A stretch of DNA of 64,000 bases. Source: Nitrososphaeria archaeon. Lineage in GTDB: Archaea; Thermoproteota; Nitrososphaeria; JACIWG01. The position numbers and the translations under genes are program-made. Below, piece by piece: positions 1,544 to 48,499 of this stretch. The notes beneath the pieces are model-generated. The model was not told the DNA's origin and made no database searches. It was given only the letters and a program-made list of their open reading frames with translations. The stretch covers positions 5,789-69,788 of the forward strand of contig JBMFNX010000002.1 in the NCBI GenBank assembly GCA_049969935.1, written 5' to 3'. Every line of letters starts with the position of its first letter. Positions within the stretch are counted from its first letter, which is position 1.

Positions 1544-1586
1544 AATTATTTAACCAACATAATCTTATAGCTGAAGGGAAAAAGGT

Positions 1587-11917: not shown

Positions 11918-11950
11918 ATGTTAACCATTGGCATCTGAAGTCTTTAAGTG

Positions 11951-14116: not shown

Positions 14117-14131
14117 GAGTATAACCTACTA

Positions 14132-16174
14132 TTATACTCTCTTATAATATCCAGGCTTAACCATGTAGAAGACACCCTTATTTTCTAGCTGAGAAAAGTA
14201 CATTTTGGCTTCAATTTCATTAAACTTTTTTGTTTCAACAAGAGCTTTTATAAGTGTGTTCAATTCTACAGGCTCATTCGATGGACCTGAAAGTTCCTTA
14301 TACTTTTGGAACACTATCTCAAGCTTGCTTCTTTCACTTGCAGGCATACCGGTTATTGTGCCCATATCAATTTTACCAGTCTTTTTGTCGACAGCAACCG
14401 TGTATAGCATACTTTTGGTTAACGTTATAGCTTCAGCCGCATCCTCTTCAGTAACCTTATCTTTGAGCAGAAGCCTTGCCCTAGCCATTGCAAGACGAAT
14501 CAATGATTCAAGCTGTCTCGGAGTCACCGGTATACCTTGCGTATCCGATTGTGAACGCATTTCAAGATAGAAGTCTATCAACATTTTTTCAGCTTCAGGT
14601 GTAATTGTAGGATTAATATTTTTACAGTATACAAGATACTTTCTTAGAAAGTCTATGTCAAGGGGAGGCTTCTGTACAAATGTGCGTGAACGCCTTAGAG
14701 CCATTATATGTGATGCAATCTGCTCGTCAACAGACCTTTCTGGAACATCTCTTATAACAAAGATTAGGTCAAATCTTGTTAAAAGTGGTGAAGGCAAATT
14801 TATGTTTTCAGCCAAATTTTTGTATGGATCATATTTTCCAAGCAATGGGTTAGCGGCTGACAGTATTGAGGTTCTAGCGTTAAGAGTGACTACAATACCT
14901 CCCTTTGCAACAGACACTGTCTGCTGCTCCATGGCTTCGTGAAGAGCTTGCCTGTCAGTATTGCTCATTTTATCAAATTCGTCTATAGCACATACACCTT
15001 GATCTGCTAAAACTACAGCTCCAGCTTCTAGCATTAGCATACCACTCTTTTCTCTTACGACAGCAGCGGTTAAACCGGCAGCAGTTGTACCTTTACCGGA
15101 AGTGTATAGGCCCCTTGGAGCCAGACGGGCAGCATATTTTAAAAGCTCACTCTTTGCTGTTCCCGGATCGCCGACAATAAGTATGTTTATGTCACCTCTC
15201 AAAGTTGTTCCATCAGGTAAGGGTATTTGTGGCGCACCCACGATAAGAAGCAAGATCGCTTCCTTTAAAAGGTCAAGGCCATAGATTGAGGGGGCGAAAG
15301 AGTTTATGAGGAGCTTCATCCAGTCAGGACGCTTTGCTAGCTCCTTAAACTTTATTTCATCAGCCTTTTCGATTATAATATCCTGTGGACTTTTACCTAA
15401 AACTTCAACATAGTTTCCTTCAATAAATGCATTAAATGTTCTAGAACGCCCACCCCTTCCACCAAACTCTTCTTCAGCCCTCAAAATACCTGTGACAGTT
15501 ACCCGGTCACCAGGCCTGGCTACATCAACGATATCACCATATAATTTTATTTCAAGCTGTCTTGGAAGCTGTCCGGGAGGAAGTTCTTCTGGAAGCTCCT
15601 GTATCCTTAATAGTTGAAAGTTCACGTACACACTTTTTAGCTCATCAAGTTTGAAAACGTCTTTTTCATCACATTCTCTACATTTTAATGGCTTTTTTAG
15701 CGAACGTTCCCTTTGAGGGACAAAGGTTATGTGATTGTTTGAGCAAACCCATGCAGCTTCAATTATATAGGGCTTTATTTCTGAAACCCTTACAACTATT
15801 CCTGTTACAGCAACAAGATTGCCTAGTAGACTTACATCCAATTTTCTTAAAGGATATTTTTCTGGAAGATTTCTTATCCTAACTATAAAAAATTTTTCCA
15901 CCCTCTTCGCGTACTCTGGATCCTCTTCCTTCAAAAAGTCTAGAGCGGCTCTAGAGAATATTTCTAAATATTTTGGATCCCTTGTCGCTAAAGCTGCAAG
16001 GTCACTGTTGTAGCGTGAAAGGTCAGAGTAGTCTATTATAAGTGAGTTACCTCCTCTTTGTATAATATTATTCAATTGAATCCTGTACTTCGGCTGCCTG
16101 TACTCATCTAACCATCCTTTAATAAAGTCTAGAAAAAGGTCCTTGATTTTAGAGTCCGAAACCGTTTCCAGCAT
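14132..16174 (-). CDS. mcm: minichromosome maintenance helicase MCM (start taken at the internal Met 'MLETVSD'; the longest ORF extends to 16219)
   Basis: Zn motif CxxC...CRECDE, Walker A GDPGTAKS, the MCM box IDEFDKM and an arginine finger. Confidence 0.9.
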   Translation of the reverse strand: MLETVSDSKIKDLFLDFIKGWLDEYRQPKYRIQLNNIIQRGGNSLIIDYSDLSRYNSDLAALATRDPKYLEIFSRAALDFLKEEDPEYAKRVEKFFIVRIRNLPEKYPLRKLDVSLLGNLVAVTGIVVRVSEIKPYIIEAAWVCSNNHITFVPQRERSLKKPLKCRECDEKDVFKLDELKSVYVNFQLLRIQELPEELPPGQLPRQLEIKLYGDIVDVARPGDRVTVTGILRAEEEFGGRGGRSRTFNAFIEGNYVEVLGKSPQDIIIEKADEIKFKELAKRPDWMKLLINSFAPSIYGLDLLKEAILLLIVGAPQIPLPDGTTLRGDINILIVGDPGTAKSELLKYAARLAPRGLYTSGKGTTAAGLTAAVVREKSGMLMLEAGAVVLADQGVCAIDEFDKMSNTDRQALHEAMEQQTVSVAKGGIVVTLNARTSILSAANPLLGKYDPYKNLAENINLPSPLLTRFDLIFVIRDVPERSVDEQIASHIMALRRSRTFVQKPPLDIDFLRKYLVYCKNINPTITPEAEKMLIDFYLEMRSQSDTQGIPVTPRQLESLIRLAMARARLLLKDKVTEEDAAEAITLTKSMLYTVAVDKKTGKIDMGTITGMPASERSKLEIVFQKYKELSGPSNEPVELNTLIKALVETKKFNEIEAKMYFSQLENKGVFYMVKPGYYKRV

Positions 16175-16175
16175 C

Positions 16176-16745
16176 CTATTTTCCAACCTCCAATATTTTA
16201 GAAACAAAATCCTTAACATTCTTTTGCAATATCTTCAAAAGTGTCTGTTCTTCGAGAGTCAGTTTCGGAAGGACTTCTCCCGCGTCCGTGAAAGGTCGGG
16301 CAAAATGCAGTAATTTTCTTATTCTAATACTAATTAGATCTTGAGCGTCATTATAAACTTTCAAATACTCACTTCTTGCCATAACGTCTGTTGAAGGAGT
16401 TGACCTTTTCTTATCTAAAAAGTCTATAAGTGCAAGGTAAAAGTTTTCTGAAAGCTGTGAAAGGTTGAGAGAGTCTCTTAAAAGCTTTTCCTTAGCAACA
16501 CTCTTGTAAAATTCCTCCTCAAACCCTTCATCTTGAATTTCTACAAAACCATTTTTTTCAAGAATTTTTGCAGCCCAAAGAGGTATAGACATTATAGAGC
16601 CTTCTAGAATTGCTTCCGCTTGAAAGGCTCCAAACTTAAGATTTTGGATTGGAGATTTGAACAATACTTTAACCGGAGTCAGCATAAACCCTAACCTTCT
16701 AATATCAATCATTTCCTCTATTGTGACGTACAAGGCTGCAACCAC
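16176..16745 (-). CDS. GINS subunit (Gins23-like)
   Basis: Small alpha/beta protein lying immediately upstream of mcm in the same orientation. This is the conserved crenarchaeal gins23-mcm arrangement. Confidence 0.45.
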   Translation of the reverse strand: MVAALYVTIEEMIDIRRLGFMLTPVKVLFKSPIQNLKFGAFQAEAILEGSIMSIPLWAAKILEKNGFVEIQDEGFEEEFYKSVAKEKLLRDSLNLSQLSENFYLALIDFLDKKRSTPSTDVMARSEYLKVYNDAQDLISIRIRKLLHFARPFTDAGEVLPKLTLEEQTLLKILQKNVKDFVSKILEVGK

Positions 16746-16883
16746 ACTCTAAACAGCATGTTAGTGGTTAAAAACTTTAATTAAATTATATGAGAGTTGA
16801 AGGTAAAATATTTTATAATAAAATTTTTTCCTACATACATTTATGCTTATATCTATTAAATTTGATTGGTAGAGTGTTAAAAG

Positions 16884-17849
16884 ATGAGTCTAGAAGAACT
16901 AATGTGGGTTGAGAAATATAGGCCGAAGGAATTGGATGAAGTAGTAGACCAACGTGAGATTATAGAAAGGATAAAGCTGCTAATCCAGAAGCCTAATGAA
17001 ATGCCGCATTTACTTTTCGCTGGACCTCCTGGAACTGGAAAGACGACGGTTGCATTAATAATAGCAAGAAAACTTTTAGGTGATGGTTGGAGAAATTATA
17101 CACTCGAACTTAACGCTTCAGATGAAAGGGGTATAAAGACTGTTAGAGAAAGGATAAAGACTTTTGCAGGCTACGTTGATAGAAGTGTGGAAGTACCTTT
17201 CAGGCTTATCATTTTAGATGAAGCAGACGAGATGACTCATGATGCTCAAACAGCTTTGAGGAGGATAATGGAGGAAAGTTCAAAGTACACAAGGTTTATC
17301 CTAATATGCAACTATTCTTCACAGATAATTGAACCGATACAAAGTCGTTGCGCCATATTTAGATTCCAGAGTCTTAGTAAAGAAGATGTTGTTGAACATC
17401 TTAAGAGGATATGTGTGATGGAGAATGTTGGATTCGAAGAAGAGGCTCTAGAACTATTGTACGAGATAACTGGGGGAGATTTGAGGCACAGTATAAACCT
17501 TCTACAGGCTTCAGCCATTGAAGGAAAGGTTACAAAAGAAAATGTTATGAAACAAGCGGGTTTAATGGGTGAAGCAAGAGTCAAGGAAATGGTTGAGCAT
17601 GCATTAAATGGAAACTTTAATGAGGCAAGAAAAATCTTGGTTGAGATGCTGAACATTAAGGGTGTATCAGAGAACGAGATACTGAGGATGCTGGGTACAA
17701 TACTATTAAATGATGACAGAGTAAACCATGGTAAGGCAGCTAAGATTTTAGCCGAATACGATTATAGGCTAGTACAGGGTGCGAACCCTGAAATACAGTT
17801 AACAGCACTATTATCTGAAATTGAGGAATTGAAAAGTGATAGGATTTGA
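16884..17849 (+). CDS. rfcS: replication factor C small subunit
   Basis: KYRP...LLFAGPPGTGKTT, DEAD box and SRC motif over 321 aa. Confidence 0.9.
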   Translation: MSLEELMWVEKYRPKELDEVVDQREIIERIKLLIQKPNEMPHLLFAGPPGTGKTTVALIIARKLLGDGWRNYTLELNASDERGIKTVRERIKTFAGYVDRSVEVPFRLIILDEADEMTHDAQTALRRIMEESSKYTRFILICNYSSQIIEPIQSRCAIFRFQSLSKEDVVEHLKRICVMENVGFEEEALELLYEITGGDLRHSINLLQASAIEGKVTKENVMKQAGLMGEARVKEMVEHALNGNFNEARKILVEMLNIKGVSENEILRMLGTILLNDDRVNHGKAAKILAEYDYRLVQGANPEIQLTALLSEIEELKSDRI

Positions 17850-19265: not shown

Positions 19266-19382
19266 TGGTAGCCCGGGAGAGATTCGAACTCTCGTCGGCG
19301 GGTTTCCTCAGCAAGTAGACTAGTGTATTTGTGTCTACATGCTTCCAAAGCCCGCTATGCTTGACCGCTACACCACCGGGCT
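19266..19382 (-). tRNA. tRNA-Gln (UUG anticodon) carrying a 41-nt intron at the canonical 37/38 site; CCA is encoded
   Basis: Reverse complement reads AGCCCGG..GCGGG-CUUUGG-[41-nt insert]-A-CCCGC..GAGAG-UUCGAAU-CUCUC-CCGGGCU-A-CCA. The insert (plus strand 19304..19344) forms the inner helices AGCA/UGCU and GUAGAC/GUCUAC. Confidence 0.75.
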
Positions 19383-26614: not shown

Positions 26615-26699
26615 TGCGGGGGGTGGGATTTGAACCCACGAACCCCTACGGGACAGGAGCCTCAGTCCTGCGCCTTTGACCTGGCTTGGCAACCCCCGC
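26615..26699 (-). tRNA. tRNA-Leu (GAG), class II with a long variable arm
   Basis: GCGGGGG/CCCCCGC acceptor, anticodon stem CAGGA/UCCUG, loop CUGAGGC, long variable arm, T-arm GUGGG-UUCAAAU-CCCAC. Confidence 0.8.
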
Positions 26700-27114
26700 G
26701 ATTGTTTTTAGGTATTGTTTTTTGTTTTTTAATATTTTTCCTTTCTTCCGCTTCCTTAAATAGTTGTTCCACTGTGCTAATTAAGAGTTTCTGCTTACGC
26801 TTTATCTCCCTTCTTGTTACTGTTTGAGCTGATGGACAAAGTTGGTCAACAATTGCTGTATGCTTTTGTATGTCATAAATTATTGGATATAGTTTGCAAC
26901 CTATAGGCCTATTATCGTATATGATACATTTCTTTTCAAAATCATTATAAAATATGCAAGATCCTTTCCTATTTTTTAATTTTGCAAACCCATTTGAATC
27001 ATATTTTACAAACATTTTCTTTTTGAAACCAAGCTTCTCTATTCTTCTTATATCGTCTTGAGTAAGTTGCATCCGTGTATGAATACAGCATTTACCGCAT
27101 CTAATGCAGTTCAT
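26662..27114 (-). CDS. YkgJ/UPF0153-family putative Zn/Fe-chelating protein
   Basis: N-terminus MNCIRCGKCCIH is the CxxCxxCC signature. The 3' end overlaps the tRNA-Leu 5' half on the same strand. Confidence 0.45.
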   Translation of the reverse strand: MNCIRCGKCCIHTRMQLTQDDIRRIEKLGFKKKMFVKYDSNGFAKLKNRKGSCIFYNDFEKKCIIYDNRPIGCKLYPIIYDIQKHTAIVDQLCPSAQTVTRREIKRKQKLLISTVEQLFKEAEERKNIKKQKTIPKNNRGGCQARSKAQD

Positions 27115-28370: not shown

Positions 28371-28556
28371 ATGTCTTCTAAGACTTATACCACTGGCCAA
28401 ACATGGGGCGCCTTAAAAAAGGCGTGGAAAGCTTACAAAATCGCTAAGGTACAAAATGATAGAGAAAAAATGCTGGAATACGCTAAAAGGATACGGACAC
28501 TACAGGAAGAACTTGGTGTAGAAAAGGCGAAGTTCCCAGACCTTGGACTAACATAG
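28371..28556 (+). CDS. small basic hypothetical protein (61 aa)
   Basis: Isolated ORF in the tRNA cluster, with a GGTG-like Shine-Dalgarno sequence shortly upstream. No known motif. Confidence 0.2.
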   Translation: MSSKTYTTGQTWGALKKAWKAYKIAKVQNDREKMLEYAKRIRTLQEELGVEKAKFPDLGLT

Positions 28557-28661: not shown

Positions 28662-28736
28662 GGGCTCGTAGCTCAGTATGGATAGAGCACAGGCCCTCTA
28701 AGCCTGGGGTCGGGGGTTCAAATCCCCTCGGGCCCG
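28662..28736 (+). tRNA. tRNA-Arg (UCU), with C rather than U at position 33
   Basis: GGGCUCG/CGGGCCC acceptor (one G-U pair), anticodon stem CAGGC/GCCUG, loop CCUCUAA, T-arm GGGGG-UUCAAAU-CCCCU. Confidence 0.7.
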
Positions 28737-28844: not shown

Positions 28845-28923
28845 TGGTGGGGTCGGTGGGATTTGAACCCACGTCCGCGCGGGCCCAAGCCGCGCAGCGT
28901 AGACCAGACTGGCCCACGACCCC
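28845..28923 (-). tRNA. tRNA-Pro (UGG), atypical D/anticodon-stem geometry (3 extra nt); CCA encoded
   Basis: GGGGUCG/CGACCCC acceptor, anticodon stem CGCGG/CCGCG extendable to 8 bp, loop CUUGGGC, T-arm GUGGG-UUCAAAU-CCCAC, discriminator A then CCA. Confidence 0.6.
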
Positions 28924-29005
28924 ATGTTTAGGTTCGTTTTCACTTTTTTATTAATTTTTTAAAAATGTTTTTTAGGTTGAAGAAATTAAATGTTGGGGAT
29001 GCTGA

Positions 29006-31063
29006 ATGTATGGGGACGTGATCGATTTCGAAACACTTTATTCAGCCCTTGGCTCAAATGAGCGATTAAGCATTTTGAATGAATTAAATAAAAGTGGGCC
29101 TCTTTCTTATACACAGTTAAAAAATAATTGTGGGTTCGTGAAGAAGAGGGAGTCTGGCAGATTTGCATATCATTTGCGATTACTAACCTCTGTCAATCTT
29201 ATTTCATTAAATAAGAATACTAAGAAGTATAGTTTGACACCTTTCGGTAGAACCGTTTTAGCGGCTACAAATGAGTTAAAAGAGGCGGCTTTACAGTTTT
29301 CTGGAAAAATATATGTTAGAACATCCAAGCATAAGATTGAAGAGTTTGATAGTAATAAAATTTATCAATCATTAATTAGGGAGGCGAATGTTCCCCGCGA
29401 TTTGGCTTCAAAAATTACGGCTGAGGCTGAGGCACGGATAAGTAAATTAGAGAATGTCCATTTGACAGCACCATTGATAAGGGAATTCGTGAACTCTATA
29501 CTTGTTGAGAAAGGATTAGATGAATATCGTAATAGGCTTACAAGATTAGGTTTGCCTGTAAAGGATGTTACAGATAAGATTACACAGATAGGGCTTTCTG
29601 AGGGAAATATTTCTTCCTTGAGGGAGGCGGCGGCTGATGCAGTCTTCACAGACTATCTTTTACTAACTCAAGTTAGTTCAGAAATTTTAGACATGCACCT
29701 TTCTGGAGAAATTAGTCTAATGAATACAGGATGCTGGGGTATTATGCCAGACAACATATTTTTTGACGCGCTAGCCTTCAGTTCCTTCGACATAAAATTT
29801 GGTTTAAAAGACCCGTTTCTTCCAAGAGAATATGGAAGAGAAAATATTAGTTTTACTAAGGCAGTTATATCTATAAATAAAATGCTTGAAAGCGTCTCAA
29901 GTGAAGTGTCTGTAGAAAATTTCATTGAATTTATGGAGTTGATGAAGAAAGTAGAGGGTGAGATAAGCTATAAAAGAGTCTATGAATTTCTTATTAACTC
30001 AATTTTGGGAATAAATCCTTTAGCTAACAACTTTTTAAGTCTCCAAATAAATTTAAAGGAAGAAAATAAAATAGATACATTAAAAATTTTTTGTGAAGCA
30101 TACTTAAAATATATTCAGGGGACATTAAGGTCTAGAATAAAACTAATCTTTAACATATTTGAAAAAGAGATATTTCTCCAGATTTTACCTTATATCCTCG
30201 ATATAATCGAGAGCGGAGGCAATGTAATGATCGTAGTAAAACCGACGGAAACAGTATCCTACCTAGGTATAAGAAAAAGCTTCTCCTCAAACGATATAGT
30301 TTCAGCAGGAACTATAATCTTACATTCATTGGCTGTTAATCTGCCACGTCTAGCATATGCTGGTACTGAAGAAACATTTCTAAAAAGTCTTTTAAAAATA
30401 AAGCTTCAGAAGGTACACGATGCTATAGAAACACGCAAAAATAATTTAATTGATCTCATGGAGAAAGAGATACTATATTTATATGAGTATAATAATGAAC
30501 TATTTTCTAAAAACTTCCTTTCAATAGTAAATTTGGTAGGATTGGATGAACTTGCAAAATTTGTTGCTTCACAAGATGAAGAGGAACAGAATAGAATATG
30601 GATAAAGTTTATGGAGTTTTCTAAGAAGGTATTAGAAGAATGTGGAAAAGGAGTTGGTTTAAGAGTTTTGCCAGCCGTCTACGTCGACGATTCTTCCAGA
30701 AGATTCTATGATATGGATAGAGAAAATATTCCGAAAGAGTTTATAGAGAAAATTGATACTGGAAGATATTCTCAAACACCCGTACTTGATATCAAGGACA
30801 TAGGTAATGAGAGCTTAATTAGAAGATTACAGTCGAGAATAGGAGCTACAGATGGAGGATACCATGTGATTTTAGATATTGGCACACAAGATGAAGACAG
30901 CTTATTAAAAGATTCAATAACAGAGGCAATCTCAAAATTGAGTGTGATAAAAATAAGGAAGAAAATGATTTCTTGCGCAACCTGTGGAACAAAAAGTATT
31001 CTTCAGTCAAGATGCCCTAAATGTGGATCAGCTAAAGTACTTGTCTTACAAACAGACAACTAG
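29006..31063 (+). CDS. NrdD-like (class III RNR-related) protein with N-terminal wHTH and ATP-cone and a C-terminal Zn-ribbon; no glycyl-radical motif
   Basis: ArsR-like wHTH in residues 1-95. ATP-cone block KIYVRTSKHKIEEFDSNKIYQSLIREA...LTAPLIREFVNSILVEKGL. NrdD-like blocks HLSGEISLMN and VNLPRLAYAG. C-terminus CATCG...CPKCG, with the ORF ending 9 residues later. Confidence 0.5.
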   Translation: MYGDVIDFETLYSALGSNERLSILNELNKSGPLSYTQLKNNCGFVKKRESGRFAYHLRLLTSVNLISLNKNTKKYSLTPFGRTVLAATNELKEAALQFSGKIYVRTSKHKIEEFDSNKIYQSLIREANVPRDLASKITAEAEARISKLENVHLTAPLIREFVNSILVEKGLDEYRNRLTRLGLPVKDVTDKITQIGLSEGNISSLREAAADAVFTDYLLLTQVSSEILDMHLSGEISLMNTGCWGIMPDNIFFDALAFSSFDIKFGLKDPFLPREYGRENISFTKAVISINKMLESVSSEVSVENFIEFMELMKKVEGEISYKRVYEFLINSILGINPLANNFLSLQINLKEENKIDTLKIFCEAYLKYIQGTLRSRIKLIFNIFEKEIFLQILPYILDIIESGGNVMIVVKPTETVSYLGIRKSFSSNDIVSAGTIILHSLAVNLPRLAYAGTEETFLKSLLKIKLQKVHDAIETRKNNLIDLMEKEILYLYEYNNELFSKNFLSIVNLVGLDELAKFVASQDEEEQNRIWIKFMEFSKKVLEECGKGVGLRVLPAVYVDDSSRRFYDMDRENIPKEFIEKIDTGRYSQTPVLDIKDIGNESLIRRLQSRIGATDGGYHVILDIGTQDEDSLLKDSITEAISKLSVIKIRKKMISCATCGTKSILQSRCPKCGSAKVLVLQTDN

Positions 31064-31068
31064 TTAGA

Positions 31069-31416
31069 TTATTTCTTACCAATAACCTCAAGTTTTCCAA
31101 AACGGCCTACATTTAGACGAATTTCACCCTTGTAGCTATTAACATAACCGTTTTCAATTTTAACCATGTCTCCAACTTCAACCATATCTATTTGCTCATC
31201 CCATAAAGTCAATTTTATACTACCAGTTTCATCTTCTAAAGTTAGGTCTGCAACCTTCGCCTTCTGACCTGTTCTTAATGTAACTTCCCTTACCTCAGGT
31301 TTTTCAACTATTTTTCCAACCACCTGAACCCTTCTCATATTATCTCTTAATTGCGATATTTGCAAGCTATTCGCACATAAACTTATAAACAAACCCTTAA
31401 AAGCTTTACTTATCAA
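31069..31416 (-). CDS. ssb: single-stranded DNA-binding protein (OB-fold, crenarchaeal SSB-like)
   Basis: OB-fold pattern VVGKIVEKPEVREV...GSIKLTLWDEQ...VKIENGYV. The true start is probably the internal MRRVQ. Confidence 0.55.
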   Translation of the reverse strand: MISKAFKGLFISLCANSLQISQLRDNMRRVQVVGKIVEKPEVREVTLRTGQKAKVADLTLEDETGSIKLTLWDEQIDMVEVGDMVKIENGYVNSYKGEIRLNVGRFGKLEVIGKK

Positions 31417-31431
31417 GAGCGTAGTTCTAAT

Positions 31432-31989
31432 ATGGGATTAGATGAAAAAATTGAAGAAAGGAAAATAGAATGCTATGGTACAGTAGAAGGAGAAAAAATT
31501 ATCGTAAAGGTGGACAATAAAGTTCAGGAATTATATCAGAGCGGATTTGGGAAAATTGATGGAGAAAATCTGATTTTAGACTTGTACGAGGGACTATATT
31601 TAAATGAACTTAAAAAAATAGAGGTTTTATATAAGGGGAAAAATGTAGGTTTCAATGAACTTATGGAAGTATGCTATAAAAAAGATAAAAATGTCCTTAC
31701 CAATTACCTAGTTTATAGGGATTTGAAAAATAGAGGATTTATAGTTAAGAAGAGTGAGGAATTCGGAGTCGATTTTTACGTTTATGAAAAAGATGATTAC
31801 TGGATAAAACGTGCAAAATATGCAATATTTGTATTAAATGAAGGGTGCGAAGTAGATTTTAAAAAAATTTTTGAAAAAATTAAAGAGGTAAAAAATTGTG
31901 TGGAGGAGTCAATTATAGCTGTCCTAGATAGAAGGGGAGAAGTAATATACTATAGAGCTTCTGAGGAGACCTTTAATGAAAAAAGATAG
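31432..31989 (+). CDS. endA: tRNA-splicing endonuclease family subunit (EndA-like); the catalytic His appears substituted, so possibly the structural beta subunit
   Basis: NYLVYRDLKNRGFIVKKSEEFGVDFYVYEKDD matches the EndA C-terminal domain core. Where catalytic subunits carry ...EHSxYLV this ORF has ...RAKYAIFV. Confidence 0.55.
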   Translation: MGLDEKIEERKIECYGTVEGEKIIVKVDNKVQELYQSGFGKIDGENLILDLYEGLYLNELKKIEVLYKGKNVGFNELMEVCYKKDKNVLTNYLVYRDLKNRGFIVKKSEEFGVDFYVYEKDDYWIKRAKYAIFVLNEGCEVDFKKIFEKIKEVKNCVEESIIAVLDRRGEVIYYRASEETFNEKR

Positions 31990-32878
31990 AATTAGACACT
32001 ATGTTAGGATAGTTAGACCAAAAAATAGTATTATGATAGGTATGGCTGTGATCATTGGAATGATCTTAACCGACCCAAAACAAATTCTTTCAATAAGAAC
32101 CGTTTACGGCTTTCTAACTGGATTTTTTATATCATGCTATTCCATGATTGTAAATGACATTTACGATATTGAGGTAGACAGAATTAATAACATGGATAGG
32201 CCTCTGGCGAAAGGTGAAATAACTGTTAAAAGCGCGTTGGTATATAGCATATTCCTACTTTTTATAGGACTTGCATTAGCATATTTTACTTCAATTTTAA
32301 ACTTTATTATAGCAATTTTGTTCGCTTTCATTTCATGGCTTTATAATTTCAGCTTGAAAAAACATGGGATAGTCGGTAATATGACTGTAGCAGTTTCAAC
32401 AATTGTACCATACTTGTATGGTAATATAATTCTTTCATATAATAATATGGTTGATGAAAATATTTTATTGAATCCAATACTTTTAAGTCCTACTGTTTGC
32501 TGGTTTTCTCTAGTATCCTTTTTTGCTGTTACAGGAAGAGAGGTGATAAAAACAATATCTGACATTGAAGGTGATAAAATAAGAGGTGTAAAGTCTGTGG
32601 CAATATGCTGGGGTAAAGGGAGGGCGGCTAAAACTGGAGCATTATTCTTTATCTTGGCGGTAATATGTACATTAGGCCCCTATATTCTTAGGGAGATGGG
32701 TACAATTTATCTTTTGGCAATATTATTTCCTGACCTACTATTTATCTACTTATCATATTCTATTCTAAAGGATTGTTCAAGTGAAAATGCTTTACGCGTT
32801 AAAAGGATGGCTTTAAATGGTATGCTTATTGGATTTTTTTCCTTTGCCATAGAAAAACTGTTGGTGATATGGATATGA
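31976..32878 (+). CDS. UbiA-family prenyltransferase (probably digeranylgeranylglyceryl phosphate synthase)
   Basis: NDIYDIEVDRIN is the Asp-rich motif 1 of UbiA family members. The ORF has about nine transmembrane helices. Confidence 0.7.
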   Translation: MKKDRIRHYVRIVRPKNSIMIGMAVIIGMILTDPKQILSIRTVYGFLTGFFISCYSMIVNDIYDIEVDRINNMDRPLAKGEITVKSALVYSIFLLFIGLALAYFTSILNFIIAILFAFISWLYNFSLKKHGIVGNMTVAVSTIVPYLYGNIILSYNNMVDENILLNPILLSPTVCWFSLVSFFAVTGREVIKTISDIEGDKIRGVKSVAICWGKGRAAKTGALFFILAVICTLGPYILREMGTIYLLAILFPDLLFIYLSYSILKDCSSENALRVKRMALNGMLIGFFSFAIEKLLVIWI

Positions 32879-34077
32879 GTTTACCTTGGACGGAAAAATA
32901 TAGGAATATCGAATTTAATATGATAATTGGTAATGAGGCTGCAAGAAGAGAGTTTTTGGAATGGTTGAAGAACTGGAAAAGAGGGGACAAGGCTGTACTA
33001 TTATTGGGGCCGCCAGGAATTGGGAAGAATACATCAGTATATGCTGCTGCAAGAAAACTAGGATATTATGTGATAGAGTTAAATGCAAGTGATATAAGAA
33101 CTAAAGATGCGCTTAACAAAAAACTAGGAACAAGTCTTTATGCTGCAAACTTATTTAATGAGAAAAGAATGGTTTTATTTGATGAAATAGACGGCCTATA
33201 TGGTAGAGAAGATTATGGGGGAATGGAATATATTATTGAACTACTTGATAAACCACCTGTACCAATAGTTCTTACAGCAAACGATGAATCAAATGAGAAC
33301 GTTTTAAAACTTTCTAAGAAAGTGATATGGATAAAATTTCAAAAAGTTCCATTAAGATTAATTGAAATATACCTAAAGCATATATGTGAAAAGGAAGGTA
33401 AACATGTGGACAAAAAGGTTCTTCAGAAGATTGTTGAAAGGAGTGGGGGTGATGTACGTAACGCCATAAATATGCTCCAGACCATTATAGATACCTCATA
33501 CCTTCTAGACGAATCAGATTTTATGAAAGATGAAAGCGTGTCAAAAATGGAGGCTATAATTGCATTAGTAGCAAGTGAAGACAAGAATATTGCCTTAAAA
33601 AAATTTTCTCAAATGGATGCAGATATAGAAGAAAAGTTAAAAATAATGTTTTACTCTATTCTAGCATCAAATCTTGATAAAATTACTAGAACTAAAGCTT
33701 TAAAAGCAATATCTGATATTGATATCCTAAGGAACAGGATAGAGAATACACAAGAATGGAGAATGGCAAGATGGTATGACATGTATTTTGTTGAAAAAAT
33801 CTTTAACCCAGAAATTAGAAAAGGTTTCAGATATTCAGAGGAAGAACCCCTATGGGAATTAAAGTTAAAATATTGGACTGAATTAAGAATATTTAAGGAA
33901 ATAAGGGAGAGAGTTAATCAAAGATACCATGTTTCTGTTGGAGAATTTTCTCTCTATTATATACCATGTATAATCGCATTAGCAAAAAAAGATTTTAGCA
34001 TGATGTCAGAATATCTAAAGTATGTAGGCTTCGGAGACAATTTCCTTTCATATATAGAGAAAAGGGTGAAGGAATAA
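32869..34077 (+). CDS. rfcL: replication factor C large subunit
   Basis: WTEKYRN...VLLLGPPGIGKNT, DEID box and an extended C-terminal region over 402 aa. Confidence 0.8.
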   Translation: MDMSLPWTEKYRNIEFNMIIGNEAARREFLEWLKNWKRGDKAVLLLGPPGIGKNTSVYAAARKLGYYVIELNASDIRTKDALNKKLGTSLYAANLFNEKRMVLFDEIDGLYGREDYGGMEYIIELLDKPPVPIVLTANDESNENVLKLSKKVIWIKFQKVPLRLIEIYLKHICEKEGKHVDKKVLQKIVERSGGDVRNAINMLQTIIDTSYLLDESDFMKDESVSKMEAIIALVASEDKNIALKKFSQMDADIEEKLKIMFYSILASNLDKITRTKALKAISDIDILRNRIENTQEWRMARWYDMYFVEKIFNPEIRKGFRYSEEEPLWELKLKYWTELRIFKEIRERVNQRYHVSVGEFSLYYIPCIIALAKKDFSMMSEYLKYVGFGDNFLSYIEKRVKE

Positions 34078-40019: not shown

Positions 40020-41189
40020 ATGATAGAAGAATATCGGATATTCAAGGATGAGAGTAAACTTTCTCCAGAATATATTCCTAAGAGGATACCGCATAGAGAA
40101 AGTGAACTAAATAAGTTGAAAAGCTTTTTTAGAATGGTTTTACAGGATCCTAAAAGAAACAGTCAGCAAGTTTTTATAGTAGGGCCTGTTGGAAGTGGGA
40201 AGACGCTTATATCTAAAAAATTTATTCAACATGTTGAAAGTCAGTACGTCTTAAATGACGTGAGATTAAAAACTTACTATACTAACTGTAGGGTTAACAG
40301 GGTCTTTGGAAGCATATTGAATAGCATACTTTCTTCTATAGGGCACTCTTTCCCAAACCGGGGCTTTTCCTTAGATGAGATTGTGCAATATTTTATATCA
40401 AAATTGAGTGAAGAAAAGGTGCATGTGATAGTGATTTTTGATGAATTTGATGCCCTTGTCTCACATGAGGGTATAGAGCCACTTTATGTTATAACGAGGA
40501 TAAGGGAGATGGTGATTGATAGACAAATATTATCTTCTATTATTATAAGCAAGTCTTTTTCATACTTGAATAAAGCGGACCCAAGTATCTTAAGTTCTAT
40601 CCAAAAAAATATAATTAAGCTTGACTCATATAATGAGTCTCAGCTTAAGGATATATTATATGATCGTGTACTAATAGCTTTTGAAGATGATACGGTAGAA
40701 AACGAAACCTTAGATTTGATTTCTAAACTTGCATCGAAGTATGGGGATGCAAGATATGCTATAGAGCTTCTTCAACTTTCAGGAAGAATTGCAGAGTTCA
40801 GAGGAGAAAGAAAGGTTAGACCAGAACATGTGAGGGAGGCAAAATTACAGTTACCTCCTCAGATAAGAAAAGAGGAATTGAATTATTTGGATGAACATGA
40901 AAAAATAATTCTTCTTTCTTTAGCAAAGATTTTGAAAGAACAGTTAGAGGATCATATTACATTAAAGGTTTTAGAAGAAGAATATAAGATTATGTGTAAA
41001 AAATATGGTAAGGAGGCTTTAAAGCATACACAGTTCTGGTTAAGAGTGAAAAATTTGGCTCAAAAAGAATTTATAGATTCAAAAGTTTCGCAGGTTGATC
41101 CCAGGGGGAGGACAACTGTAATTAGTTTATTGAATATTCCAGCCGAACAACTTTATAATGAAATAAAAGAGAGACTGGAATATGGATAG
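40020..41189 (+). CDS. cdc6: Orc1/Cdc6 replication initiator (AAA+ plus C-terminal winged helix)
   Basis: IPHRESEL..., Walker A GPVGSGKT, sensor motifs and a C-terminal wH domain over 389 aa. Confidence 0.85.
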   Translation: MIEEYRIFKDESKLSPEYIPKRIPHRESELNKLKSFFRMVLQDPKRNSQQVFIVGPVGSGKTLISKKFIQHVESQYVLNDVRLKTYYTNCRVNRVFGSILNSILSSIGHSFPNRGFSLDEIVQYFISKLSEEKVHVIVIFDEFDALVSHEGIEPLYVITRIREMVIDRQILSSIIISKSFSYLNKADPSILSSIQKNIIKLDSYNESQLKDILYDRVLIAFEDDTVENETLDLISKLASKYGDARYAIELLQLSGRIAEFRGERKVRPEHVREAKLQLPPQIRKEELNYLDEHEKIILLSLAKILKEQLEDHITLKVLEEEYKIMCKKYGKEALKHTQFWLRVKNLAQKEFIDSKVSQVDPRGRTTVISLLNIPAEQLYNEIKERLEYG

Positions 41190-41476: not shown

Positions 41477-44400
41477 CTATTCTTTGTCAATGAATTCCTC
41501 AGGTGATGGTGGAGATTCACTTAATCCTTTCCTCTTTCTAATCGATGCAATTAGTTGTGGTAGAAGATTTGATGGAACAGGACTCCATTCTTTAAAGTGT
41601 GTATTCCACATAGCTTTGCCAGCGGTCGCACCACGCATAGCTTCACTCAAATCAAATGTTTCTGCGGCAGGTATAACACCCTCTATGATTGTTAGGACAC
41701 CTTTTTGTTCTACATTAAGCATTTTCCCTCTCCTTGCAGAAATTACACCTGCTATGGCGCCAATCAAGTCAGCGTTCGCTTTAACTTCTATACCTAAAAC
41801 GGGTTCAAGTAATGTTGGATTAGCTAGAAGCATGGCACCTAGTATTGCCCGTCTAGATGCTGGCAAAAGTTGGGCATAAGTTCTATGAGCAGGATCTTCA
41901 TGGAATTCGGCATGATGTAGAACTACTTTAACGCCTCTACATGGTTCCTGTGCTAAGGGGCCATTTTCCATTACATCAAAGAAGCCGACTCTTATCGAAT
42001 CAATAGATTCCTGCATAAATTGGACACCTTTTGTTGCATCAACAAAAAGGTTACCTCTTGGATCAATAGCGACAACATTTCTAGCTTCATCTGCATCCCA
42101 TCCATGGTCCCTTAATATTTTTGCGATCGTCTTTCTATCAAGTTGATCATTAATAGTATTATTCCTTATTAATTCAATAACTTCAGCAGATAATGGTTCC
42201 ACTCGCATGAAAATACGATTATGTTTGTTTGGAGATTTTGCCATAACAGGCCCAGCTGAAGCCCTTATAGTTTCACGATAGTTAATTAATGGAGGAGTAG
42301 TTATTATTTCTAAACCAGTCTGCGTGATAAGCGTTGTCGCTATCTCTAAATGTAGCACACCCATACCTGACATTAGCATTTCCCCAGTCTCTTCATTTAT
42401 TTTGATCACAAGATTAGGATCTTCTATTGACAATTTTCTCAATGTTTCAATAAGTTTAGGTAAGTCTCTTGGATACTTTGGTTCTACAGCAATAGTCACT
42501 ACAGGTTCAGATACATATCTTATCTGTTCAAATGGCGTTATATCTTTTATTGAAGATACTGTTTCACCTGCCCTCGCAGCATCTAGTCCTAGCAGAGCAG
42601 GTATATTGCCTGCTGTAAGAACACCAACAATTTCTCTAAATGGACCCATGAACATGCTTACAGATTGCACACGAGCCTGTGTTTTTGCATTATGCAGGTA
42701 AAGTATGTCACCATCATGAACAGTTCCAGAAAAGAGGCGGCCTACAGCAACAACACCAGCTTGAGGATCAACAACTACGTTTGTCACCATCATTACAACA
42801 GGTCCCTTCTCATCACAGTTTAAGAGAGCTTGGCCTACTTCTGAATTCAGGTCACCCTTCCATATCTTTGGAATACGATATCTTTGCGCAACATGTGGGG
42901 GAGGATGATGCCTTATTACCATTGAAAGTATAGCATCATGTAATGGAAAGTTTTCGGCGAGAATCTTAATGTTACCTGCTTCATATGCCTTGTATATGTC
43001 ACTAAATCGGACACCCTTCTTTTGTGCAATCATAAAATTGAAGCCCCAACGGTCCTTTGCTGAACCAAATGCAACACTACTATCTTGTATACTAACTTTC
43101 CATTTTGACTTAAATTCTGGTTCAGCATATATGTCTATTAAATTATTAAATTCACTGACTATATTGGCAAGCCAAGCTTGCATCTTTTCTGGACTAAGCT
43201 TTAATTCTTTAATCAGCCTATCAATTTTATTAATATATAAGACTGGCCTAACTCTTTCCTCTAATGCTTGACGAGTAACAGTTTCAGTTTGCGTCATTAT
43301 ACCTTCAACAGCATCACATACAACTACAACACCGTCAATAGCACGCAAACTTCTTGTTACTCTACCAGTAAAATCAATGTGTCCTGGTGTATCTATTAAA
43401 TTTATTACATATGGAACATTCTCATATTCATAGTATAATGTAACGTTGGCTGCTTTAATTGTCATTTGCCTCTGCTGCTCTAGATCCATGTAGTCTAGGG
43501 CTAAAGCTTGGCCTGCAAGAGCAGGGCTAAGCATACCGCATGCAGCAAGAAGACTATCGCTCATAGTGGTATTATGCACTATTATACCGTTTGCAACAAA
43601 GGTGTGCGTGGTGGGTACAGTTAAGTCATAGACATCGAATTCACCCACAATTGGTTCAACATGAGAGACTTCAACAAATCTAACTTCGCCAGAAGCAAGT
43701 TTCCTCCAAGCATCCAGTATCTGCTCGATATTCTCTTTTTGAACACTAGATCCTCTGAGAAGATGCTTCCATATTGATAGGGCTTCCCGTCCAGTATCAG
43801 TAACACTAATTTTCCCATCCTTTATCTTTATGAGCTTGTCACTCTTGAGAGATGCCAGAAGACCGTTTAAGCGGTTTGAATCTAATTTGCATTCGCCTAT
43901 TAGTGTACTATATGTAACTTCATTACAGCATCTTTCAAGGATAGATGCCTTTATGGAAAGGTAGCTCAGTTCATTAAGTGCTTCTGAAAACACTTTAACA
44001 ATCTTACCTAATGCCACCCTATTTATTCGCTGTAAACCGTATTCATACTTACTGTAGTATGGGAAACCTCTTATGGTACGAGGAAGCCCTAGTGAGATCC
44101 GAAGGGCTGATAGCACCTTTGGTGAAATTGGGACTATGTCTGCAACTCGGTTTGATGCCGTTAGTCTGCTGAATCTGCGGAGAAGCTTATTTTTGTTCGG
44201 TAATGTAAAGCCTATTCTGCTTCTAAACGTCTTTAGATCCCTACCAGATATGCTTAAGACAAAATATCTACCCTTCTTATACTTTGTCGATACTATGCCA
44301 AAGCGAATTAAGAGTATGGATAGCTGGTCAATTAGCTCTTTAGATGCGGAGGTTATCGAGACAGATCTGCTCCGTTTGTTGACTGTGCCATCTGTGTCGA

Positions 44401-45539
44401 AGAGCCCTTTCAAGAATTCTGCAACAAGGTCATCACGCATAGCGGTCAGCAGATCTGACAGCACCAGCTTCTTAGACTTCTTGAAAGAATGGTAAGAGAA
44501 GAGATCCTCAAAGAACTTTATGAGCGTGAGGCCTCCGTAATGGTCAACTCTCACACTAGTTTTGCCTGAAACTACTCTGCTATCCACGTTGAAAGCCTTT
44601 AGCAACGCCTGCTTGAATCGGAACAAGATGCGCAAGTTCGTGTTGGTTAAGGACGCCCTAGTAGTGCCGTCACCATATAGCAGACCTAGAGCATACATCA
44701 TAGCCTTAAATTCATCTATTGTCTTAGGGAGGTGGATCCTCTTTGACTGTCTGCCAAATCTTTTTAGCGAAGAGCGGTATAAGAGGACATCAATGGCATC
44801 ATATAGCATAGACTTATTGAGCCCTATCAACTGAGCTATACATAAAAGGTCCTTGAGGCGGTACCTCCCTAGCCTAACTCCTTGTCGAAAGCTTTCGTAA
44901 TCTAGCTTGCTGCCAATGCTCCTCCACACTGCCTTAATGCCTCTCTGAGAAAGAGTGGTTGCAATAGATGAAGCAAATGGCTCCAGTAGATATATGAGAT
45001 AATAATCGCGCTCCGAAAGTCTTTCAATGATCCTCGCCTTAACTTGATCCAGCTCTAAACCAACGGATTTTAAGAGCGAGGGTACAGCAACATAGACACC
45101 TGGAGTTAGATCAGAAGCCCTTATGGCCTCTAACAATCCAAGCTCTGACAAAGTGTAAAATGGATGTTCGGGAGTAGTTGAAACCTCAAAACCGTTTCTT
45201 AAACTGACTCGAATCAACTTGTTACTCTTAAGCTTCCAGACGTAAACCGCTTTCATATCTTTAATATTAAGCAAAGAGGGGTCCATAGAATCTACAAAAA
45301 CATCCTTCAAGGTGGCTCTCTTATCAAACCGCCCATAGCGCTCGTAAAGCACCTTAATCGGAAGAATCTCACCAGTAGATAATGTTACATAAGAATCTTC
45401 GCTCACACACTTACCATGATCTACATGGGCAACAACACCCAGATTATTCGGGTTTAGAGATTTTTCTCTAAACCTTTCGAATCTGGTCCTTGTTGCCTAT
45501 GATTTTTAATGCTTCTGCGGTAGTTTTATACCTTGGCAT
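41477..45539 (-). CDS. fusA: translation elongation factor aEF-2, interrupted by a 31-nt BHB intron (45445..45475) and a 613-aa intein (43571..45409); the mature protein is about 730 aa
   Basis: Exon 1 (45476..45539) encodes MPRYKTTAEALKIIGNKDQIR, then frame A hits UAG. Removing 31 nt gives ...[16 protein letters not shown][intein][27 protein letters not shown]...NLIDTPGHIDF..., which aligns with Sulfolobus aEF-2 (MPRYKT...[17 protein letters not shown]...). Confidence 0.85.
43571..45409 (-). mobile_element. intein with LAGLIDADG homing-endonuclease domain inserted in the aEF-2 P-loop
   Basis: Host junctions are AHVDHGK|C at the start and HN|[8 protein letters not shown] at the end. The Hint N-terminus is CVSEDSYVTLSTGE, the LAGLIDADG blocks are MMYALGLLYGDGTT and VAEFLKGLFDTDGTV, and the C-terminus is FVANGIIVHN+T. 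Confidence 0.85.
45445..45475 (-). other. predicted bulge-helix-bulge (hBHBh') pre-mRNA intron in aEF-2
   Basis: mRNA: CCAGA-UUCG-[AA|A]-GGUUUAGAGA-AAAA-UCUCUAAACC-CGAA-[UA|A]-UCUGG. This is a 5-bp outer helix, a 4-bp central helix, two 3-nt bulges on opposite strands, a 10-bp inner helix and a 4-nt loop. Cleavage after the second bulge nucleotide on each strand excises exactly 31 nt and restores the frame. Confidence 0.7.
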
Positions 45540-46942: not shown

Positions 46943-47677
46943 TTAAACTCTAAAATAATAGATGAGAAGTATAAATAAGATTATAAATGATAGACATGAG
47001 AGTAGTGCAAAATAGTCTCGTCGCCTAAAACTTAATCTGTAATATGATGTTCTTTTTTTAGAAAAACCATAAGCTCTAGACTCCATTGCTTCAGCTAATT
47101 CCTCACTTCTTATAATCGATTGAACAATTAATGGTACCAATACTGGAATATAATTACGGATCCGCTTAAATAAATTACCCTTTTCTATTTCAAGACCTCT
47201 AGAACGTTGAGAGTCTATTATTTGTAGCGCATCCAATAATATTACTGGTACAAAACGTACTGCTGTAACGAAGGCAAATATTAAATCGTAAGGTAAGTGT
47301 AGAGAGCGCATAACAAGGTCAAGCTCATCAGGAGAAGACGTTAAGAAGAAGATAGAGGAGGATGAAATTATTGCAATAAAACGTAATGAGATAATTATGG
47401 AGAAAATAAGTTCGTATCCTACTAGCAAGTTTATTATAAAGATCATGGCCACAAATGAGAGAGAGAATGTTATAGTTTTTATCATCCTCCTAAACACCTT
47501 AGAAACAACTCCTAAAATGAAGATAATCGATAACAGTATAGCGAATTCAAAAATCGTGTTACTGAAGAGTGAAAGGATAAAAAGTGATAGTGAAATAGTC
47601 AATTTAACTCTTGGGTCAAGAGAGTGAACGAAACTGTCCTGACGTCTGTATATTAAGCCTTCTGCTAACCAAAACAT
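46943..47677 (-). CDS. ecfT: ECF transporter transmembrane T component (EcfT/CbiQ)
   Basis: A 244-aa polytopic membrane protein lying directly downstream of two ECF-type ABC ATPases. Confidence 0.65.
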   Translation of the reverse strand: MFWLAEGLIYRRQDSFVHSLDPRVKLTISLSLFILSLFSNTIFEFAILLSIIFILGVVSKVFRRMIKTITFSLSFVAMIFIINLLVGYELIFSIIISLRFIAIISSSSIFFLTSSPDELDLVMRSLHLPYDLIFAFVTAVRFVPVILLDALQIIDSQRSRGLEIEKGNLFKRIRNYIPVLVPLIVQSIIRSEELAEAMESRAYGFSKKRTSYYRLSFRRRDYFALLSCLSFIILFILLIYYFRV

Positions 47678-47683
47678 TCTATC

Positions 47684-48499
47684 TCAGCCTTTAAATAGCT
47701 TTAAAATCATTGCACGTGCTTCAAGAAGATCAATAGGAGGTTTATCAATTAATGGAAAAAGTTCTTCATAAAGTTCAATAAGTTGAGGTTTTGTAATACC
47801 ACATTCTTCTAGTGCTTCTGAATCACTGAAAATTCTTCTACAATCACCGTCTCTAACGATCATCCCGTTAGAGATTAATATTATTCTAGGCTGCAGAAGC
47901 CAAATAAATTCAACATCATGGGACACGATTATAACTGTCTTGTTCTGGGTTGCAAGCATTTTAATAATTTCCCTAAGCTTTTCCTTTTGGAGAAAATCTT
48001 GCCCAACTGTAGGTTCATCAAGTATAATAAAGTCCGGATCCCATGCAAGAACAGAGGCTAAACATAATCTCTTTTTTTCACCACCACTCAACAATAGGGG
48101 GGAGACATCTTTGTATTGAATTAGGTTAAAGAATTCTAAAGCCCATTTAACTCTTTTCTTTGCAACCTCTTCATCAAATCCAAAATTTTTTAAGGCGAAA
48201 GCAACTTCATTCCATACAGTATCGGAGAAAAGTTGGTGGCCAGGGTTTTGAAAAACGAGTCCAACCCTCTTTGAAAAATAGGCTACTGATTCTTCGCGCG
48301 TGTCCTTACCGAATACCTTAACTGAACCCTTTGTTGGTTTAAGTAATCCGTTAAAATGTTTTATAAGTGTAGTTTTACCAGAACCATTTCCACCCATTAT
48401 ACCCACTATTTCTCCAAGTTTAATCTTTAAATTAACATTTTTTAGAATAAAATCCTTTGCTAAAGGATATTTAAAATATAATGAGTCTACTTCAATCAA
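47684..48499 (-). CDS. ecfA2: ECF transporter ATPase EcfA2
   Basis: Walker A GGNGSGKTT, signature LSGGEKKR and Walker B ILDEP. Confidence 0.8.
   Translation of the reverse strand: MIEVDSLYFKYPLAKDFILKNVNLKIKLGEIVGIMGGNGSGKTTLIKHFNGLLKPTKGSVKVFGKDTREESVAYFSKRVGLVFQNPGHQLFSDTVWNEVAFALKNFGFDEEVAKKRVKWALEFFNLIQYKDVSPLLLSGGEKKRLCLASVLAWDPDFIILDEPTVGQDFLQKEKLREIIKMLATQNKTVIIVSHDVEFIWLLQPRIILISNGMIVRDGDCRRIFSDSEALEECGITKPQLIELYEELFPLIDKPPIDLLEARAMILKLFKG

Follow-up and report, generated by a model that had tools for sequence, protein, structure and literature searches.

The window analysed here, a stretch of 64,000 nucleotides (nt) of contig JBMFNX010000002.1 from a Nitrososphaeria archaeon, carries on its forward strand, at positions 29006 to 31063, an open reading frame (ORF) of 685 amino acids (aa) with an ATG start, in which a winged helix-turn-helix (wHTH), an ATP-cone, a catalytically dead barrel of the class III ribonucleotide reductase (RNR) NrdD and a Zn ribbon follow one another. 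A first-pass annotation, made from the letters alone, had read an ATP-cone and an ArsR-like winged helix at the N-terminus, and Pfam recovers both. The wHTH (29036 to 29266, residues 11-87) matches the ArsR-like family DUF7347 (E value 6e-10, 39.6 bits for a cutoff of 27.6) and shows the topology H-H-H-strand-strand in an AF2 model, with a recognition helix at about residues 47-62 that reads KRESGRFAYHLRLLTS; ArsR/HTH_20 profiles match the N-terminal 90 residues weakly, and the ArsR metalloregulator model gives 19.1 for a cutoff of 55. The ATP-cone (29309 to 29527, residues 102-174) matches PF03477 (E value 4.5e-7, 30.8 bits for a cutoff of 25.8). The NrdD-type ten-stranded alpha/beta barrel core, delimited by Foldseek and hhalign, extends from 29558 to 30940 (residues ~185-645) and includes the block 'DMHLSGEISL' (29690 to 29719, residues 229-238), counterpart of NrdD 'DAHxxGxIHxHD', a degenerate and shortened finger loop (30236 to 30307, residues 411-434; MAFFT/hhalign), and the invariant block 'NLPRL' (30338 to 30352, residues 445-449), which corresponds to NrdD 'NLPRIA'. 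The C-terminal Zn ribbon (30974 to 31024; C657, C660, C670 and C673) is of the NrdD type and is followed by 12 residues and the stop codon. The first-pass annotation had noted this ribbon and the lack of a glycyl-radical segment behind it, both of which stand, and had put the end of the protein at 9 residues past the ribbon, a trivial difference. The ribbon is the only one in the protein, the N-terminus being according to Pfam a winged helix and not a Zn ribbon, and the NrdR model is absent among the NCBIfam matches. The AF2 model, built from 21 family members, has a mean pLDDT of 81.5 and a pTM of 0.72; its low-confidence linkers (residues 92-100 and 180-183) suggest that the three modules are held on flexible tethers.

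The relationship of the central domain to NrdD is supported by both structure and sequence profiles. All of the top 33 matches that Foldseek gives in the PDB belong to class III RNRs, from S. thermophilus, T. maritima, P. copri and phage T4, with 577-731 aligned columns, TM scores of 0.48-0.64 and E values of 1e-18 to 1e-11, and class I RNR subunits and one enzyme of the pyruvate formate-lyase (PFL) family rank far lower. At the sequence level, a whole-protein phmmer search against the PDB was uninformative and a profile search informative. A comparison by hhalign of the family profile with a profile of true archaeal NrdDs (sequences of the Methanococcus vannielii type plus one from locus L085, described below) yielded a probability of 100% and an E value of 2e-45 over 589 columns. 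The two NrdD-like blocks from which the relationship had first been proposed are real, since MAFFT and hhalign both align them with their true NrdD counterparts: 'DMHLSGEISLMN' pairs with 'DAHMRGDIHLHD', with D229, H231 and G234 invariant in the family, and 'VNLPRLAY' pairs with 'VNLPRIAY'.

The same alignments show how much of the enzyme has been lost. The Pfam NRDD match, at residues 416-677, covers profile positions 258-531 of 562 and does not reach the glycyl-radical part; the hhalign alignment spans NrdD residues 94-741 of 771 and stops one residue before R742-I-T-G745-Y746. The C-terminus of NrdD is thus not present in full, and the glycyl-radical motif (RxxGY) is missing from the protein. 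When model and alignment are inspected for the finger-loop Cys and the Gly-radical loop, as the first-pass annotation had proposed, both are found to be missing, and so are the second active-site Cys and the Asn. The thiyl-radical C455 of the finger loop ('MGCR'; T4 C290) is replaced by T416 according to hhalign or by L420 according to MAFFT, and there is no Cys anywhere in residues 364-545; the beta-A active-site C247 (T4 C79) is replaced by N250 (MAFFT/hhalign); and the active-site Asn N476 (T4 N311) by the hydrophobic I437/I438, on the next strand after the finger loop. The only invariant Cys of the family are those of the ribbon, C657-x2-C660...C670-x2-C673, which aligns to that of NrdD. 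The NrdD equivalog model of NCBIfam, TIGR02487, gives 43.7 bits for a cutoff of 326.35, compared with 487.7 bits for the true NrdD of L085. Judged from these substitutions, neither a glycyl nor a thiyl radical can be formed or used by the protein, and it is almost certainly not a reductase, in agreement with the earlier suspicion that it is not a working class III enzyme.

The ATP-cone is of a variant type, 'YVRTS...EEF..NKI', in which the basic residues R105, K118, R175 and R180 are conserved. In P. copri NrdD the triphosphates are held in the cone by Lys7/Arg8 and Arg87/Arg91. The family has 'VRTS' where the canonical cone has 'VKRDG', with R105 kept one position earlier and K118, R175 and R180 invariant. 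The 'VRTS' variant is also found in true archaeal NrdDs, to whose core-proximal cone that of the family is very similar, so that binding of nucleotides by the variant cone is plausible from its sequence.

The fusion belongs to a large and conserved archaeal family, which answers the question, raised with the first annotation, of its phyletic distribution. A word-indexed search gave more than 1000 matches; those listed have the same architecture and ~685-700 aa, and the named ones among them come mostly from Nitrososphaeria/Thaumarchaeota, Tara Oceans sequences included. All 120 listed homologs that reach the C-terminus end 6-25 residues past the ribbon. A profile search of 1.84 billion representative proteins rendered 382 clusters (50% identity) at E values up to 1e-30, and when GTDB species, each represented by a single genome, were scanned, relatives turned up in at least 515 genomes, from which 80 loci, all of Nitrososphaeria, were kept; the counts of Nitrososphaeria loci given below are based on them. 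They include Nitrososphaera, Nitrosopelagicus, Nitrosopumilales, Conexivisphaerales and Gagatemarchaeum, and among them are aerobic ammonia oxidisers, which are obligate aerobes in which a glycyl-radical enzyme would be useless. The possibility that the ORF is a pseudogene or a truncation was rejected, as the reading frame is unbroken and hundreds of species have kept this architecture. Names given in databases are inconsistent ('anaerobic ribonucleoside-triphosphate reductase', 'ArsR family transcriptional regulator', 'HxlR family', 'ATP cone domain-containing protein', 'hypothetical'), and a full-text search of the literature, which left subscription journals outside, found no description of a family combining wHTH, cone and dead NrdD.

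Conservation is distributed very unevenly along the protein. Mean pairwise identity within the family is 0.76 in the winged helix (24 of 80 columns invariant) and 0.73 in the cone, then 0.60 in the DAHxxGDIH region, 0.54 in the NLPR strand, 0.25-0.29 in the two halves of the barrel and 0.21, the lowest value, in the finger loop. As far as the alignment can tell, this gradient is the opposite of that of a working RNR. The relatives also differ in how much of NrdD they retain. Apart from the form represented by the window ORF, which has no radical domain, there are long forms of 720-800 aa, including one from a Bathyarchaeota metagenome-assembled genome, with a winged helix and a full-length tail in which the radical motif is mutated (for example 'GRSSATYAPLELW' compared with 'SRITGYLQNVSNW') and the finger-loop Cys replaced, and short forms of 565-660 aa, in Aigarchaeota (Terraquivivens, Pelearchaeum), that have lost the ribbon as well. 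The closest of the true NrdDs is that of Methanococcus vannielii, whose core-proximal cone and linker consensus is almost identical to that of the family. In these sequences a degeneration series is visible, which would lead from true NrdD to a Gly-mutated form with a wHTH, then to deletion of the radical domain and finally to deletion of the ribbon.

The genes of this family are found next to genes for working RNRs. The gene nrdJ, encoding the class II enzyme, lies directly downstream of the family gene in 67 of the 80 Nitrososphaeria loci, and these nrdJ products score 675-781 bits on TIGR02504 (cutoff 400). The two genes are on the same strand in 64 loci, mostly with a gap of 50-600 nt, and convergent in three loci of Conexivisphaerales. 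Six of the 13 exceptions have less than 600 nt of downstream sequence, so that 7 of 74 adequately flanked loci are truly without nrdJ: L001-L003, which are the closest relatives of the window, and four loci of Nitrososphaeraceae. The linkage surfaced in a scan for the motif NPCGE; a comparison restricted to the neighbours of the window gene missed it and mistakenly pointed to the lack of a conserved partner. Some of the adjacent NrdJ proteins have their own N-terminal ATP-cone (L056, 12236-14968; L005, 6226-8814) and others do not (L011, 12399-14801; L004, 2332-4545), the regulator lying upstream in all of them; the NrdJ frame of L008 (12252-15716) has 1154 aa and may contain an intein.

In other lineages the neighbour can be an RNR of another class. 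In L085, a locus of the Bathyarchaeota type, an intact NrdD is encoded 278 nt downstream (487.7 bits, as given above, for a cutoff of 326), with the beta-A Cys, 'QCCR', the ribbon and 'WSRITGY', followed by a thioredoxin-like gene. A metagenome scan with the long-form alignment rendered 80 loci of the Bathyarchaeota type, 58 of them with at least 1 kb of downstream flank; in 48 of these 58 an RNR gene on the same strand lies directly downstream, NrdD-like in 47 and nrdJ in 1, and the remaining 10 have neither. A complete ORF with an intact R[IV]TGY is present in 30 of the 47 NrdD-like neighbours. In L086, of a further short-tailed lineage, a B12-dependent RNR lies downstream, and in L082 and L084 no link to an RNR was seen. 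The Bathyarchaeota-type homolog of L081 is located between purL/F/E/M-like genes (83-5241) and pyrB and pyrI (10289-13163), not near an RNR gene. Linkage to two RNR classes, in lineages of differing relations to oxygen, is what would be expected of a dedicated regulator of RNR, and bacterial NrdR answers to the same description.

A candidate operator was sought around these genes. Enrichment of k-mers was discarded, owing to shared ancestry and to mis-called starts in Nitrososphaera, and footprinting and a spacer-controlled scan for dyads were used instead. Taken singly, the half-site GTCAA/TTGAC shows no more than a moderate enrichment (in 73% and 62% of promoters, with a background of 29%). 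Footprinting was carried out in the largest clade, of 29 loci, whose regulators are at least 70% identical and whose intergenic DNA has diverged. In the regulator's own promoter only a TATA-like box, a TTGAC 2-3 nt 3' of it and a TGA(C/A) ~31 nt upstream are conserved. In the spacer between the regulator gene and nrdJ, an invariant GTCAA is found within GTCAA-N6-TT(G/C/A)AC, often preceded by a further TTGAC, the dyad being a perfect palindrome in L033, L047 and L049, and a second box, GTCAAC, lies ~22 nt upstream of the TATA box of nrdJ. A conserved block, 'CGTCTCATG', is also present ~70-90 nt past the regulator stop codon in the group L012-L074 (the large soil clade), between the two GTCAA boxes upstream of nrdJ, and may represent a region of transcription start or else a short upstream ORF.

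When the dyad GTCAA-N6-TTGAC was scanned with at most one mismatch, 108 matches were found in 1.27 Mb of locus DNA, of which 71 fell in two zones, the regulator's own promoter and its downstream spacer, that together make up 3.9% of the DNA. Control spacers of 4, 5, 7, 8, 9 and 10 gave 0, 7, 2, 1, 4 and 6 matches in the zones, and N3 gave 13, which come from conserved sequence at the nrdJ coding start. At the level of clades (70% protein identity), the dyad is present in a zone in 11 of 23, for a chance expectation of ~0.02 per zone calculated from the rate outside the zones. Its presence runs parallel to the sequence of the wing. All dyad-positive clades have the version 'HLRKLV...LNRxERKY...LGRL', and most dyad-negative ones, including Nitrososphaera, Nitrosopelagicus and Conexivisphaerales, have 'HLRKLL...LNKxERRY...LGKL'; L048 and L066 are exceptions, with the first version and yet dyad-negative, and the clade of the window has a third version of wing and recognition helix, 'HLRLL...LNKNTKKY...FGRT'. 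In Bathyarchaeota-type loci the GTCAA dyad is only weakly enriched. In the zones of loci L087-L166, with a long-form regulator and nrdD, ATGAC-N7-GTCAT is found 10 times (0 elsewhere) and TTTAA-N4-TTAAA 24 times (1 elsewhere); both are, on this count, candidate operators or promoter features.

Taken together, these results make it likely that the protein is a pseudoenzyme, a dead class III RNR turned into a transcription regulator of RNR genes, and we are reasonably confident that the family exerts such regulation through DNA binding, as its sequences and gene neighbourhoods point to. A regulator that senses nucleotides in the manner of NrdR was one of the two functions offered by the first-pass annotation, and conservation, linkage to RNR and the dyad speak for it; they speak against the other, an RNR-derived enzyme with new chemistry. 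As for the mechanism, the N-terminal winged helix would bind the dyad DNA, and the NrdD barrel would serve as a scaffold for dimerisation and allostery, its parent enzyme being a homodimer, with the dimer formed through the NrdD interface so as to set two winged helices on the dyad operator. Half-sites separated by a 6-bp spacer are 11 bp apart from centre to centre, an arrangement that would suit a dimer of two winged helices. The state of the (d)NTP (ribo- and deoxyribonucleoside triphosphate) pool would be reported by the ATP-cone, possibly also by a retained effector region of the barrel, and would alter DNA binding or the oligomeric state, in the way known for ATP and dATP in NrdD and NrdR. 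For NrdD of P. copri the dimer is the form preferred with ATP and the tetramer that with dATP, and the effects reach over a long range into the core (PMC11226230); NrdR gates DNA binding through its cone (PMC9110341). The targets of the family would be its own promoter and that of the real RNR gene of the cell. Because TTGAC sits past the TATA box and ahead of the start codon in the regulator gene, autorepression is our guess as to the direction of the effect there, and control of nrdJ from the sites upstream of its TATA box is a guess too.

Several observations weigh against this interpretation, some for the family and others for the window. In the cone, the canonical Lys-Arg pair is not at its usual positions, as already described, and the cone alone, used as a single sequence, matched no solved ATP-cone among the PDB sequences. 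The statistics of the motif rest on related genomes, which are not fully independent. The dyad was not detected in 12 of the 23 clades, among them Nitrososphaera and Nitrosopelagicus, and no alternative motif was found in these two, where the regions are too divergent and the sequences too few. In the window there is no RNR gene, and none is adjacent to the family gene in the window or in L001-L003. The dyad is missing from the window promoter, and its five one-mismatch matches elsewhere in the window are all inside ORFs and at chance level (5 for an expected 2.07 +/- 1.39). With no neighbouring nrdJ and no dyad, this particular copy has its function assigned by homology, and that it too regulates RNR by DNA binding is, on balance, somewhat more probable than its opposite.

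The promoter space of the window gene, on the forward strand, is the 82 bp from the tRNA gene to the ATG (28924 to 29005), A/T-rich and TATA-like and without the dyad, in which a direct repeat, TTTAGGTT, at 28927 and 28971 flanks the A/T-rich box. The protein is deep-branching, 62-78% identical to those of L001-L003 and 31-35% to the rest, and upstream of its gene are two tRNA genes, while an SSB-like gene lies 5 nt downstream in convergent orientation. As the first-pass annotation had stated, no nrdG activase gene is visible: NrdG and RNRs of any class are absent among 41 further ORFs of the window, the only radical-SAM protein being MoaA. These ORFs, with the target, cover nearly all non-overlapping window ORFs of at least 120 aa, and tblastn with NrdJ queries gave no match in the window.

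One alternative is that the protein is a regulatory subunit acting on the RNR protein itself, NrdJ or NrdD, for example by providing a cone in trans or by forming inactive hetero-oligomers, with the winged helix used for protein contacts. The tight linkage to RNR genes would fit with it, and so would the adjacent NrdJ proteins without a cone of their own (L011, L004), the shift in oligomeric state of the parent enzyme with ATP and dATP (PMC11226230), and the fact that the Bathyarchaeota-type copy is a paralog of the neighbouring NrdD, with which it might heterodimerise. Nevertheless, no part of the protein is more conserved than the winged helix, which matches DNA-binding HTH profiles; a dyad of specific spacing is concentrated at the regulator's own promoter and upstream of nrdJ and co-varies with the sequence of the wing; the regulator also adjoins NrdJ and NrdD proteins already equipped with a cone; and, as the dimer interfaces of NrdJ and NrdD differ, a single partner surface for both is unlikely. 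We therefore regard action at the protein level as improbable.

A second alternative concerns only the lineage of the window, where a DNA-binding nucleotide sensor could have been rewired to targets other than RNR, for instance replication or nucleotide-pool genes. It can draw on the lack of an adjacent RNR gene in the window and in L001-L003, on a wing and recognition helix unlike those of other clades, on the different promoter repeat (TTTAGGTT twice), on the crowding of replication genes in the window (SSB, RFC, MCM, Cdc6) and on the one Bathyarchaeota-type homolog located between pur and pyr genes. Against it, no conserved motif linking replication or nucleotide-pool genes was found, and regulators often act on unlinked targets, so that a lost adjacency does not amount to a lost control of RNR; we give such rewiring a slim chance. 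Hel308, MCM, the RFC small subunit, an SSB-like OB-fold protein, the RFC large subunit and Cdc6/Orc1 are encoded near the target (11951-17849, 31069-34077 and 40020-41189), where a replication origin may lie. Two housekeeping genes of the dNTP pool, for an HD-domain YfbR-like 5'-deoxynucleotidase (2915-3457, forward strand) and a Ham1/ITPase (56912-57502, forward strand), are also present in the window, and no promoter motif common to them and the target was found.

That the protein is an enzyme with some other, non-radical chemistry, using the RNR barrel to bind nucleotides, seems very unlikely. The barrel fold is intact and modelled with high confidence, and the polar residues D229, H231, D249, E300, N445, R448, R477 and D571 are invariant. 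However, the interior of the barrel and the finger loop are the least conserved parts (0.21-0.29), the opposite of an active site; the invariant residues are in structural or nucleotide-binding blocks shared with NrdD and form no new cluster; and such an enzyme would leave no role for a fused and nearly invariant DNA-binding domain. The least credible option, which we hold to be next to impossible, is a functional class III enzyme that would receive its glycyl-radical domain in trans from a small protein, as the spare part GrcA/YfiD is known to do for PFL. The end of the protein does coincide with the point at which the radical domain would start, but in practice the missing Cys already refute such an enzyme, the thiyl-radical Cys and the second active-site Cys being replaced, and the Asn as well. 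Also against it are the lack of an activase and of a small glycyl-radical ORF in the window, the universal presence of the family in obligate aerobes, and the long forms, which retain the tail with the Gly itself mutated.

Some other features of the window deserve mention. A cobalt transporter of the ECF type (CbiQ and two ABC ATPases; 46943-49365, reverse strand) may be relevant if the RNR of this organism is B12-dependent. A 61-aa ORF at 28371-28556 (forward strand), with no Pfam match, shows 100% protein identity in L001 and L002, compared with 56-84% for the flanking genes, and appears to encode an unusually constrained small protein. An intein that carries a LAGLIDADG homing endonuclease interrupts the gene of elongation factor 2 (41477-45406, reverse strand; a frame of 1309 aa). 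The window has seven tRNA genes, including those at 28662-28736 (forward strand) and 28848-28923 (reverse strand), which occupy most of the space upstream of the target, one of 114 nt at 19269-19382 (reverse strand) that probably has an intron, and one at 26615-26699 (reverse strand); ORF 26662-27114 has probably been called from a wrong start, since a tRNA gene extends over its 5' end.

By comparison with known systems, the family appears to work like NrdR without belonging to the NrdR family, being derived from NrdD. As in NrdR, an ATP-cone is fused to a DNA-binding module, the gene or its (in the family, putative) binding sites go with RNR operons whatever the RNR class, palindromic boxes, candidate ones in the family, are located near the core promoter, and ATP/dATP would probably be read with an oligomeric change (PMC9110341, PMC12176259). 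The two are homologous in the cone only, the family would bind DNA by a winged helix and NrdR does so by a Zn ribbon; the family adds a complete dead NrdD barrel of ~460 residues and an NrdD ribbon, has the divergent 'VRTS' cone, occurs in archaea (Nitrososphaeria, Aigarchaeota, Bathyarchaeota), and its putative half-site, GTCAA with a 6-bp spacer, does not correspond to the box of NrdR. With NrdD, and most closely with the Methanococcus type (WP_012066053-like), it shares the fold over the whole length, a near-identical cone and linker, the DAHxxGxIH and NLPRxAYE blocks and the C-terminal Zn ribbon. Nonetheless it lacks four defining features of that enzyme, the glycyl-radical domain, the finger-loop Cys, the beta-A Cys and the active-site Asn, has an additional N-terminal winged helix, and occurs in aerobes and without NrdG nearby. 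A precedent for its origin is given by enzyme-derived transcription factors, for example NrtR, whose effector domain is Nudix-like and which has a wHTH (PMC2330246), where an enzyme of a pathway likewise lost catalysis, kept ligand binding, gained a winged helix and came to regulate the pathway; scaffold and pathway are different, and the donor in the present case is among the largest and most elaborately allosteric enzymes. From ArsR/SmtB-like and DUF7347 regulators the family differs by having no metal-sensing motifs and by the fusion of ~600 residues of RNR-derived sensor.

A more ambitious proposal, which we consider possible but doubtful, is that the whole allosteric apparatus of RNR (the activity site, the site at the dimer interface that sets specificity, and the pocket for the substrate) has been kept as a multi-input sensor of the size and balance of the dNTP pool, that the protein is the main RNR regulator of TACK archaea, and that it arose by tandem duplication of nrdD and capture of a winged helix. 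If that were true, transcription of the real reductase, of class II or III, would be set by a dead reductase copy that still 'computes' as a reductase does.

The finding bears first on annotation: the name 'anaerobic ribonucleoside-triphosphate reductase', a widespread error, could mislead readers into the belief that ammonia-oxidising archaea and other Nitrososphaeria synthesise DNA anaerobically. It also describes the conversion of an enzyme into a regulator, in which a large radical enzyme without its chemistry has been retained across more than 500 species and stays beside a working RNR even when the RNR class differs. The stepwise losses, from the mutated Gly to the deleted radical domain and the deleted ribbon, amount to a natural experiment on which parts of NrdD are needed for allosteric signalling. 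NrdR is rare in archaea (PMC9110341, PMC12176259), and the family is a candidate for the control of RNR transcription there, with GTCAA-N6-TTGAC as the predicted operator; it is probably a nucleotide-sensing switch for the synthesis of DNA precursors of a kind thought to be lacking in archaea.

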